From an uncultured Candidatus Saccharibacteria bacterium (GTDB taxonomy: Bacteria > Patescibacteriota > Minisyncoccia > Phycocordibacterales > UBA9973): a stretch of DNA of 64,000 bases. The stretch lies in NCBI GenBank assembly GCA_964622505.1, contig CAZUQJ010000001.1, positions 44,240 through 108,239 of the forward strand. The letters are read 5' to 3'. This document shows, one piece after another, positions 32,704 to 34,626 of the stretch (within the stretch, counting starts at the first letter, position 1; each line of letters begins with the position of its first letter). The position numbers were made by a program, and so were the translations under genes. A model generated the notes under the pieces. That model was not told the origin of the DNA, did no database searches, and saw nothing but the letters and a program-made list of their open reading frames with translations.

Positions 32704-34626
32704 ATGAAGAAATTATATTCCTATCAAAAAAGGGTGCACACCCTAGTTTTGAGAGCTATCAACAAGGTTGGTAAAGCCCTCATGGTAATGGCACCTGGTC
32801 TTGGTAAGACCGTAGTGTCATCGTTCCTACTTTCATCTCTTTATAAAAAAGGTAATAAAGTATTGTTCTTGTGTCACGATAATTATATTTTAGCTCAAGG
32901 CCATCGTGAGTTTCGAGAAACTTTTGATCCAGATGAAAATCTTATTTTCTACAATTTCTTTGGGTTAAGCAAGGATATTGAGGAAGCTAAACAAGCACAT
33001 GTTGTTTTTGCATCGTTTCAGTTGTTTAACAGTAAATCAAAATGGTATCAAGATTTCAAAAAAAATCATTTTGCTATAATTATTGTTGACGAAGGACACC
33101 ATGTACCAGCTCCGACATTTCGTGAAGTTATTGAATATTTTACTCCCAAAAAAGCACTTTGTATGACAGGCACGCCTGACCGTATGGATAAGCTTAATAT
33201 TCGAAATTTATACGGAGAAGAAGTGGTTAACATTACAATTGAGCAGGGTATTGCCAAAGGATGGCTGACAAATGTTGAGTATCATGTACTTTCAGATGGG
33301 CTTGATGAAATCGCGTTAAAAGAAATGTTTAAGGATGTGGTAATGGAGAAACGCCGAATTACGGTCAACCAAATCAACAAACAACTTTTTGTAAAGAAAC
33401 GTGACGAAGAGCAAATCAGTAAAATCAAAAAGTATACAAAAGACTGGAACAAAAAATGTATTATTTTTTGTGAAAGCATCCATCATGTGAGATCATTTGC
33501 TCAACAGCTAGAGAAAGGTAAATATTGTACTTTTCATTCTGAAAATTCAACAAAGATCAACAATGAAAATTTGCATGCTTTCAAACATGGAGACATGAAT
33601 ATTATACTTAGTGTAGATAAATTCAACGAAGGTATCGATATTCCAGATGTTGAAGTGATCGTTTTCATTCGCGCTACTGAATCAGGTATTGTCTATCGGC
33701 AACAGCTTGGTAGAGGACTTCGGAAAAAATTGGGTAAATCAAAAGTTGTAGTTTTAGATTTTGTTGCTAATGCGCAGCGTATTTTAATGATACAAGGAAT
33801 GATTAAAACTATCCAGCAATGGAATGGTCCAGTAAAATCAGACAAATCGCCATTATCAGTAAAAGGTACTTACTTTTCTTTTAATTTCTCAGATGAACTT
33901 GAGGACATTATAGAAATTCTTCGGGTTGCACGAATGGGGTTTTATGAGACTTGGCAGGAAGCTTCAAAAGCTGCGATTGCTTTATGTATAAAAGCTCCAA
34001 AAGAGTATGGTAAAAAATACAAAGAGGATCAAAAATTGATTAGTAAACCCCATGATTATTATGATGATTTTCCTGGATGGTCATTGTTTTTAGGCAAAGA
34101 ACATTATATTACTTGGCAAGAAGCTTCAGAAGCTGCGATTAAACTTGGAATTAAATCTGTAGTAGAATATGATAAAAGGTATAAAGAAGATCCAAAATTG
34201 TTCAGTTTACCTAAGAGTCACTATAAGGATTTTCCTAATTGGCGTAAATTTCTTGGAAAGCACGATGGAGGTTTCTATGCTACTTGGCGGCAAGCATCAA
34301 AAGCCGCGATTGCTCTTGGAATCAAATCTCAACGAGATTATATTGTAGCTAAAAAATACAAAGGCGATCCTAAGTTAAACGTAACTCCTCAACTCTATTA
34401 TGTTTCATTTCCAGGTTGGGATAAATTTCTTGGGAAAAATGAAAGGAATTTTTATCCTACGTGGCGTAAAGCATCCAATGCAGTAATTAAACTCGGAGTA
34501 AAAAGTTCCGAAGATTACGCAGTGAACTTCAAAAAATATAAAACTTTGGACAAACGACTTCATAATCGCCCTTCTGCTTACTATAAAGATTTTCCGGGTT
34601 GGAAAAAATTTCTTGGTAGAGAATAA
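32704..34626 (+). CDS. SF2 (ResIII/DEAH-like) helicase with four tandem ~54-aa C-terminal repeats
   Basis: Helicase motifs I APGLGKT, II IIVDEGHH, III MTGTPDR, VI QQLGRGLR; residues ~413-640 are 4 repeats of consensus FY.TWqEASkAAIaLGIKS..eY...YKeDPKL...P...YkDFPGW.KFLGK. Confidence 0.75.
   Translation: MKKLYSYQKRVHTLVLRAINKVGKALMVMAPGLGKTVVSSFLLSSLYKKGNKVLFLCHDNYILAQGHREFRETFDPDENLIFYNFFGLSKDIEEAKQAHVVFASFQLFNSKSKWYQDFKKNHFAIIIVDEGHHVPAPTFREVIEYFTPKKALCMTGTPDRMDKLNIRNLYGEEVVNITIEQGIAKGWLTNVEYHVLSDGLDEIALKEMFKDVVMEKRRITVNQINKQLFVKKRDEEQISKIKKYTKDWNKKCIIFCESIHHVRSFAQQLEKGKYCTFHSENSTKINNENLHAFKHGDMNIILSVDKFNEGIDIPDVEVIVFIRATESGIVYRQQLGRGLRKKLGKSKVVVLDFVANAQRILMIQGMIKTIQQWNGPVKSDKSPLSVKGTYFSFNFSDELEDIIEILRVARMGFYETWQEASKAAIALCIKAPKEYGKKYKEDQKLISKPHDYYDDFPGWSLFLGKEHYITWQEASEAAIKLGIKSVVEYDKRYKEDPKLFSLPKSHYKDFPNWRKFLGKHDGGFYATWRQASKAAIALGIKSQRDYIVAKKYKGDPKLNVTPQLYYVSFPGWDKFLGKNERNFYPTWRKASNAVIKLGVKSSEDYAVNFKKYKTLDKRLHNRPSAYYKDFPGWKKFLGRE

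Follow-up and report, generated by a model that had tools for sequence, protein, structure and literature searches.

Four tandem INT_rpt units at the C-terminus of a Patescibacteria SF2 helicase, a putative DNA-binding tail

The stretch of DNA analysed here (the window) comprises 64,000 nucleotides of contig CAZUQJ010000001.1 (positions 44,240 to 108,239; assembly GCA_964622505.1) from an uncultured Candidatus Saccharibacteria bacterium, and contains a gene for a superfamily 2 (SF2) helicase of 640 amino acids (aa) that ends in four tandem repeats. The host protein is an intact SF2 DExH helicase, with its motifs and both RecA-like lobes present, and on sequence similarity its tail is an ordinary new member of the catalogued Pfam family INT_rpt (PF14882, 'Integrase repeat unit', formerly PHINT_rpt). 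From sequence and from analogy with related motors, we consider it somewhat better than an even chance (about 55%) that the array serves as a multivalent, largely sequence-independent DNA-binding tail on a motor resembling double-stranded DNA (dsDNA) translocases.

The repeat units and their family

The original prediction, made from the letters of the window and a list of its open reading frames (ORFs), placed four tandem repeats with a conserved aromatic/Lys pattern at the C-terminus of the helicase. The peptide it quoted is the exact translation of window positions 33940-34626, the C-terminus of ORF 32704..34626. With unit borders set by anchoring on [FH]Y.TW, this peptide resolved into four contiguous, head-to-tail units of 54-59 aa with 51-61% pairwise identity (Table 1), the last ending in an FLG motif followed by two residues and the stop codon (34624-34626). 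Global alignment of unit pairs scored 137-157, against about -17 +/- 10 for shuffled units (z = 14.9-18.1). As the copies were only 60-72% identical at the DNA level and Tandem Repeats Finder reported no repeat for the array DNA, the array reflects an old duplication kept at the protein level, and a recent or slippage-derived DNA repeat was ruled out on the same two observations.

The aromatic/Lys pattern also held across 778 units from 163 homologues. Aromatic residues were conserved at Y2 (98%), W5 (87%), Y23 (99%), Y27 (72%), Y41 (98%), F44 (81%), W47 (69%; 90% aromatic) and F50 (95%), and basic residues at K/R28 (77%) and R/K32 (82%). Near-invariant positions were Y2, T4, W5, A8, L15-G16-I17, Y23, Y27-K28 and D30 in the first half of the unit, and R/K32-L33-P34, P37, Y41, D43-F44-P45-G46-W47 and F50-L51-G52 in the second, giving the helicase-unit consensus fYpTWQEAS.AAikLGIks..eY.krYK.DprLPs.P...Y.DFPGW..FLG. 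The units were basic, with a mean net charge of +3.1 and a median isoelectric point (pI) of 9.3, and the window array itself had a pI of 9.66.

The repeat had been described as one that could not be assigned with confidence. In Pfam, the array matched PF14882 in four stretches and scored 105.4 bits, well above the gathering cutoff of 26.5; the whole protein and a single unit scored 99.6 and 30.0 bits, respectively, so that this reservation falls away. The motif of the family (Y.TW.EAS / LGI.S / Y...YK.D..LP..P...Y.DFPGW..FLG) was kept in the 778 helicase units and in 249 units of GmtZ integrases (see below). The Pfam register is circularly shifted, with the unit starting about 21 residues later than in the [FH]Y.TW register. 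In 98 of 120 orthologous helicases, FY.TW opens the array and FLG(xx) closes it at the very C-terminus, and a single unit folds confidently alone in the model; the register used in the original prediction therefore corresponds to the natural domain boundary.

A loose resemblance to AP2/integrase-type or helicase-associated (HA) DNA-binding domains had also been proposed. AP2/integrase DNA-binding domains are built of a helix and a three-stranded sheet, and HA arrays (PF03457) consist of small helical repeats that sit at the C-terminus of helicases and presumably bind nucleic acids. Neither family matched the window helicase at E <= 1 in Pfam, and the predicted fold of the units is all-alpha, unlike the AP2 sheet. 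The HA domain does occur in one related helicase (P0310), where it lies between the motor and the INT_rpt array (aa 423-481) as a separate, adjoining domain, which marks the two as different families. The resemblance is thus verbal, and we give almost no credence to either identity. The echo of 'integrase' proved real in one respect, since INT_rpt is named for the GmtZ/VPA1269 putative integrases, which are of a different kind from the AP2/integrase DNA-binding domain.

No other DNA-binding family matched the array in Pfam even at E <= 1, and no NCBIfam model covered the tail. Searching the PDB with the array by phmmer returned only a chance match (TIMP-2, E 0.77), and a 92-unit profile returned designed toroid repeats, through summed 15-residue matches, and chance matches, which were not accepted as homologues. 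Foldseek searches of the PDB with the four-unit and one-unit models gave nothing below E = 2. Across these searches, none of the matches was to a well-studied domain with an unrelated function, for instance a repeat that binds cell walls. HNH_repeat (PF18780, homing endonuclease associated repeat) likewise forms tandem helical units of about 55-60 aa. On one orthologous helicase (P0145), it takes the place of INT_rpt units or lengthens their array, with three INT_rpt units followed by three HNH_repeat units. An hhalign comparison based on only three HNH_repeat sequences gave a probability of 1.2% and thus no support for homology between the two families.

When plasmids were searched by tblastn, the array matched genes labelled 'VPA1269 family protein'. 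On Marinobacter pMAQU02 (L003), the matched gene lies between gmtY and gmtX and encodes eight INT_rpt units followed by Integrase_2 and Phage_integrase domains; this VPA1269 protein is GmtZ of the Gamma-Mobile-Trio islands. These islands carry defence and weapons, and GmtZ is one of three mobility proteins, acting with GmtY and GmtX, all three of which are needed for excision (bioRxiv 10.1101/2023.03.28.534373). The consensus of the GmtZ units, Y.Tl.EAs.Aa..LGIkt..eY..rYkeDprLPs.P...Y.dW.gW..FLG, has the same pattern as that of the helicase units. GmtZ and the window helicase thus both carry tandem INT_rpt arrays of variable length, whereas in GmtZ 6-17 units stand at the N-terminus, ahead of Integrase_2 and Phage_integrase, and in the window helicase four units stand at the C-terminus, behind an SF2 motor without a recombinase domain. 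The GmtZ units are also less basic (mean net charge +1.45 vs +3.1). No integrase domain was found in the window helicase by Pfam, neither Integrase_2 (PF13009) nor Phage_integrase, and its neighbours are genes for RmuC and an ExoX-like exonuclease, not gmtY and gmtX; the protein is therefore not a GmtZ.

Predicted structure, distribution and evolution of the units

The four-unit array was modelled by AlphaFold2 with a predicted local distance difference test score (pLDDT) of 93.3 and a predicted template modelling score (pTM) of 0.53. The repeats had been called helix-rich, and the models agree, with four helices per unit (pLDDT 93) at residues 5-14, 20-29, 37-40 and 47-50. Unit 2 modelled alone, as the original prediction had proposed for one repeat, also gave four helices (pLDDT 92.7, pTM 0.74). 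The units are thus predicted to be autonomous, all-alpha mini-domains of about 55 aa. Each would consist of two 10-residue helices with the conserved L-G-I-K-S turn between them, followed by two one-turn helices, and the eight conserved aromatic residues probably form its core. With a pTM this modest for the whole array, the geometry between units is not confidently defined; the models are consistent with beads on a short string, and the units may alternatively be arranged as a regular superhelix.

A Foldseek comparison of the array model with BFVD gave matches to SF2 / ResIII helicases of giant viruses (Klosneuvirinae) over 114-196 aligned columns with 16-24% identity; the best was from Bodo saltans virus (A0A2H4UVX6, E 5.4e-4, probability 1.0), and the top five had probabilities of 0.98-1.0. 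Helicases of this type from Klosneuvirus, Terrestrivirus and Catovirus also matched the array model structurally; further accessions from Klosneuvirinae are A0A1V0SLK7, A0A3G4ZSX7 and A0A1V0SJG3. The segment formed by helix 1, the turn and helix 2 weakly matched phrog_925, 'HTH DNA binding protein' (E 1.2e-4, with no single stretch passing). Both the phrog_925 and the giant-virus matches are weak leads only.

A full-length search recovered 1,103 proteins at E <= 1e-10 among 8,000 scored candidates, and ResIII, Helicase_C and INT_rpt were combined in all of the best 120 relatives. The helicase relatives with a named organism were all from Patescibacteria (Paceibacterota, Parcubacteria, Azambacteria, Sungbacteria and others), and they are labelled 'DEAD/DEAH box helicase family protein' or 'integrase repeat-containing protein' in NCBI. 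A protein identical to the window helicase (P0044) was found in NCBI and Logan assemblies. Orthologous helicases carried 3-8 units, most often five. In an exhaustive search with the 92-unit profile, the family comprised 3,444 representatives of 50% identity clusters at E <= 1e-3, out of 1.84 billion, with up to 17 units per protein. Among 130 new top matches, 32 had a helicase core and 27 the GmtZ integrase region, and 71 were mostly repeat-only, some of which are surely fragments. A scan of GTDB species genomes with window unit 2 and five consensus-like sequences composed from the family profile found 62 loci, a pattern-biased sample and not a census, mostly in Patescibacteria lineages or Gammaproteobacteria (Vibrio, Pseudomonas, Psychromonas, Cellvibrio and others), with a few in Bacteroidales, Micavibrio, Acidimicrobiales and Aminicenantes.

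Further domain partners were seen in single relatives. DUF4379 treble-clef zinc fingers accompany INT_rpt in P0021, and an INT_rpt array is fused to ankyrin repeats in P0234. An orthologous helicase of 1049 aa (P0113; two member sequences on three contigs) has a complete sigma-70 factor (regions 1.2, 2, 3 and 4) fused N-terminally, which is either a real fusion hinting at a link to transcription or a gene-calling artefact. A search for the repeat as a stand-alone domain, also suggested originally, was fruitful: a genuine 82-aa relative of the unit (P0169) is encoded in a Falkowbacteria genome and was matched by the unit profile at E 4e-16, with no score from the Pfam INT_rpt model. Only nine proteins, all short, came out of a word-index search with the unit profile, and at least one of them (P0165) is a fragment of a frameshifted helicase gene. 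In one long-read-style assembly (L072, 2075-4294), an orthologous helicase is split by apparent frameshifts into four or five short ORFs with ResIII, Helicase_C and INT_rpt fragments; the neighbouring genes are fragmented as well, and many short 'INT_rpt-only' proteins in databases are thus assembly fragments.

The array had no match in a tblastn search of 50,697 phage records, and a pattern scan of IMG/VR found no relative. With the PHROGs match to an 'HTH' protein being weak, a phage origin of the array was rejected. Separately, one 885-aa protein (P0178; L073, 4001-6658) is built solely of INT_rpt units, about 14 in number. Its contig carries many short same-strand ORFs, a homologue of Acb1 (anti-CBASS) beside the repeat protein and an Rv2179c-like exonuclease, and looks phage-like.

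Any two units were 45-58% identical, with means of 0.51 within and 0.46 between proteins, and positional orthology of units was not seen, even in comparison with an orthologue whose motor is 84% identical. The array was about 50% identical to that of orthologues whether the motor was 84% or 46% identical (51% where the core was 84%). The nonsynonymous distance (dN) was 0.47 for the array against 0.10 for the core, the motif positions being frozen and the remainder saturating quickly. As synonymous sites were saturated in the Nei-Gojobori comparison with the closest orthologue, L005 (proportion of synonymous differences, pS, 0.73-0.91), selection on the array cannot be inferred from these values. 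The equivalent, interchangeable units and their free change in copy number point to one function common to all units and exerted on a repetitive ligand, and unit equivalence without positional orthology fits equivalent modules binding a uniform polymer.

The same fast change at non-motif positions and the variable copy number would be expected of a weakly constrained spacer or low-complexity tail without a specific ligand. Against this, about half of the unit positions are 70-99% conserved over more than 1,000 units from distant phyla and different hosts, the family has thousands of cluster representatives, and the models are confident and compact; we regard a spacer as extremely improbable. 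A further possibility, which we consider very improbable, is that INT_rpt arrays are modular, evolvable DNA readers in which the strictly conserved aromatic scaffold presents fast-changing specificity positions. Unit positions 19-21, 24, 36, 38-40 and 48-49 would then set specificity for DNA sequence or structure, and copy number (3-8 on Patescibacteria helicases, 6-17 on GmtZ) would set the footprint. If true, this would account for the ability of each Gamma-Mobile-Trio island to find an insertion site of its own, as well as for an array identity of only 51% between helicase orthologues with motors 84% identical. Neutral drift where constraint is absent accounts for these numbers too.

The helicase motor and the proposed role of the array

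The GLGKT, DEGH, TGTP (aa 155) and QQLGRGLR motifs of the motor were all intact in a motif search. The linker between motor and array matched no Pfam family; a segment of the GKGFEF.FSD..VDL..VL type is kept among relatives, and the linker is 73-75% identical in close orthologues. The closest solved chain to the motor was 7clg_A (SauUSI, E 3.4e-38; aa 22-363 vs 7clg residues 242-567), followed by the HsdR fragment 3h1t, RadD 6jde (E 1.6e-12, core only) and XPB. The PADLOC model mREase_IV also matched (E 1.5e-45; aa 17-357 vs model positions 234-569 of 945), in its ATPase part only. SauUSI consists of a PLD nuclease, an SF2 ATPase (residues 221-617) that translocates on DNA, a helical coupler (618-805) and an SRA-type target recognition domain (TRD, 806-953) (PMC7913695). 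The window protein likewise has a motor followed by a C-terminal helical region, the 52-aa linker and the INT_rpt array standing at the place of the SauUSI coupler and TRD. It differs from SauUSI in having neither PLD nuclease nor SRA-type TRD nor a defence-island context; no nuclease was found in the protein, which begins at the helicase.

All NCBIfam equivalog scores of the window protein were far under their cutoffs, including those for the type I restriction R subunit (NF046051 EcoAI/FtnUII, 125.9 bits, cutoff 550) and RadD / YejH (NF053632, 93.2 bits, cutoff 720). On these grounds, the identities of a SauUSI-type restriction enzyme, HsdR and RadD were rejected. The window protein would be at most a translocase with a DNA-contacting tail, not a restriction enzyme.

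The partners of INT_rpt in unrelated architectures are mostly DNA enzymes or DNA binders, the units are basic and equivalent, and the position of the array corresponds to the DNA-recognition end of SauUSI; it is because of these four features that we favour a DNA-binding tail. In the mechanism we propose, INT_rpt modules would be equivalent, generic nucleic-acid-binding beads that jointly grip DNA, and translocation by the RecA lobes would proceed with the enzyme loaded or anchored by its tail. The motor itself is a nuclease-less SF2 DExH enzyme, most similar to the ATPases with which type IV and type I restriction enzymes (SauUSI, HsdR) translocate on dsDNA. Binding of nucleic acids or of a partner, as first suggested for the repeats, stays the best inference.

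Several observations weigh against a DNA-binding tail. Aromatic and acidic residues (Y, W, F, E7, D30, D43) make up most of the strongly conserved positions of the unit, good conservation of a basic residue is limited to two positions (K/R28 and R/K32), the GmtZ units are less basic, and in one relative the array is fused to ankyrin repeats, which bind proteins. At their sensitivity, the PDB sequence and Foldseek searches revealed no homologue with a known DNA-binding fold, and no conserved gene neighbourhood, among five loci, backs any pathway. The literature searched held no experiment on any INT_rpt protein, and the Gamma-Mobile-Trio paper makes no mention of the repeats (bioRxiv 10.1101/2023.03.28.534373).

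Some of these features would also suit a protein-protein scaffold that either brings the helicase together with another protein (RNA polymerase, SSB or a recombinase, for example) or drives oligomerisation. The conserved surface rich in aromatic and acidic residues, the ankyrin and sigma-70 fusions (P0234 and P0113), the dependence of GmtZ on GmtY and GmtX, and the existence of repeat-only proteins all point that way. However, the module occurs in very different hosts (helicase, integrase, zinc finger) and distant phyla, for which DNA is a more plausible shared ligand than a protein; copy number changes freely without positional orthology, the units are net positive, and no conserved neighbour gene offers itself as a partner. 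On balance we hold a scaffold role to be doubtful. It is improbable, too, that the tail binds RNA in the manner of the basic C-terminal extensions of RNA helicases, with structured RNA or a ribonucleoprotein as substrate. A basic, multivalent tail would suit such a ligand, lobe 2 is weakly similar to the DEAD-box proteins SrmB, DbpA and RhlE (NCBIfam, E 1e-6 to 1e-7), and ribosomal protein genes lie near some orthologues. The motor is nonetheless of the DExH/ResIII type, with matches to SauUSI (3e-38), HsdR, RadD and XPB that are far stronger than those to DEAD-box proteins, and the other INT_rpt hosts are DNA recombinases and proteins with DNA-associated domains.

As the helicase is a stand-alone chromosomal gene widespread in Patescibacteria, the enzyme would more likely serve genome maintenance or remodelling than phage defence. 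A defence-system assignment was rejected: the PADLOC matches were to a generic ATPase only, no nuclease or methylase was present, and five loci had unrelated housekeeping neighbours.

Table 1. Positions in the window of the helicase gene, its domains, motifs and repeat units, and the surrounding features.
Feature	Window positions	Strand	Protein residues	Basis
SF2 helicase with C-terminal INT_rpt array, whole gene	32704..34626	+	640 aa + stop	ORF list, Pfam
RecA-like lobe 1, ResIII	32707..33183	+	aa 2-160	Pfam PF04851, E 8.1e-30
Walker A, GLGKT (lobe 1)	32797-32811	+	aa 32	Motif search
DEGH (lobe 1)	33088-33099	+	aa 129	Motif search
RecA-like lobe 2, Helicase_C	33418..33726	+	aa 239-341	Pfam PF00271, E 6.1e-16
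Motif VI, QQLGRGLR (lobe 2)	33700-33723	+	aa 333	Motif search
Linker, motor to array	33784..33939	+	aa 361-412, 52 aa	Alignment with relatives
INT_rpt unit 1	33940..34101	+	aa 413-466, 54 aa	Predicted helices at array residues 5-14, 20-29, 37-40, 47-50
INT_rpt unit 2	34102..34272	+	aa 467-523, 57 aa	Pfam, unit alignment, single-unit model
INT_rpt unit 3	34273..34449	+	aa 524-582, 59 aa	Pfam, unit alignment, array model
INT_rpt unit 4	34450..34623	+	aa 583-640, 58 aa	Pfam, unit alignment, array model
Gly/Tyr/Asn-rich ORF	31088-31513	+	141 aa	No Pfam family
RmuC (divergent neighbour of helicase)	31562-32623	-		E 4e-53
DEDDh exonuclease with ExoX-like C-terminal motif (convergent neighbour)	34709-35431	-		RNase_T 2.5e-18, ExoX-like_C 3.3e-11
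Candidate IS110-like ORF	35539-36837	+	432 aa	No Pfam family at E <= 1e-3
Gap after candidate IS110-like ORF	36838-37370			About 530 bp; Rfam chance-level only

Neighbouring genes and implications for the INT_rpt family

The helicase gene is flanked by a divergent gene for RmuC and a convergent gene for an ExoX-like exonuclease. This trio was absent from four orthologous loci, where the neighbours are unrelated housekeeping genes; as it was seen only in this genome, a conserved operon with RmuC and ExoX was rejected. Next to the RmuC gene lies an ORF whose product has a hydrophobic N-terminus followed by Gly/Tyr/Asn-rich low complexity (GYGGGYGNYGG...), and this ORF is kept beside the RmuC gene in Logan contig L001. 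The product of the 432-aa ORF two genes downstream of the helicase gave a sub-threshold match to Transposase_20 (IS116/IS110/IS902; E 0.017, aa 204-241) and a match to PDB chain 9mty_A, 'Transposase IS116/IS110/IS902 C-terminal domain-containing protein' (E 1.5e-10, aa 186-254). It has a Cys-rich C-terminus, no N-terminal DEDD/RuvC domain was detected in it, and it may be a divergent IS110-like recombinase. Its flanks were blank in Rfam apart from chance-level matches, and no plus-strand ORF of at least 60 aa starts in the gap that follows it.

INT_rpt, though catalogued, appears to be uncharacterised, as neither a solved structure nor a functional paper was found in the literature or by sequence and Foldseek searches of the PDB. 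In the literature searched, PF14882 turned up only in a benchmark of repeat modelling, where its model was poor (PMC8078820), and in 'integrase' hidden Markov model lists, as an integrase or lysogeny marker, in at least two virome studies (PMC11502894, PMC12044158). As more than 1,100 chromosomal INT_rpt helicases lack a recombinase domain and the array had no relative in the phage records searched, PF14882 alone is no evidence of an integrase, and the Patescibacteria helicases would falsely trigger such a marker. The family sits on two notable classes of protein, a helicase found across the very reduced genomes of Patescibacteria and GmtZ. The domain is small, tractable and widespread, and the binding behaviour or structure of one 55-aa unit would annotate thousands of proteins.

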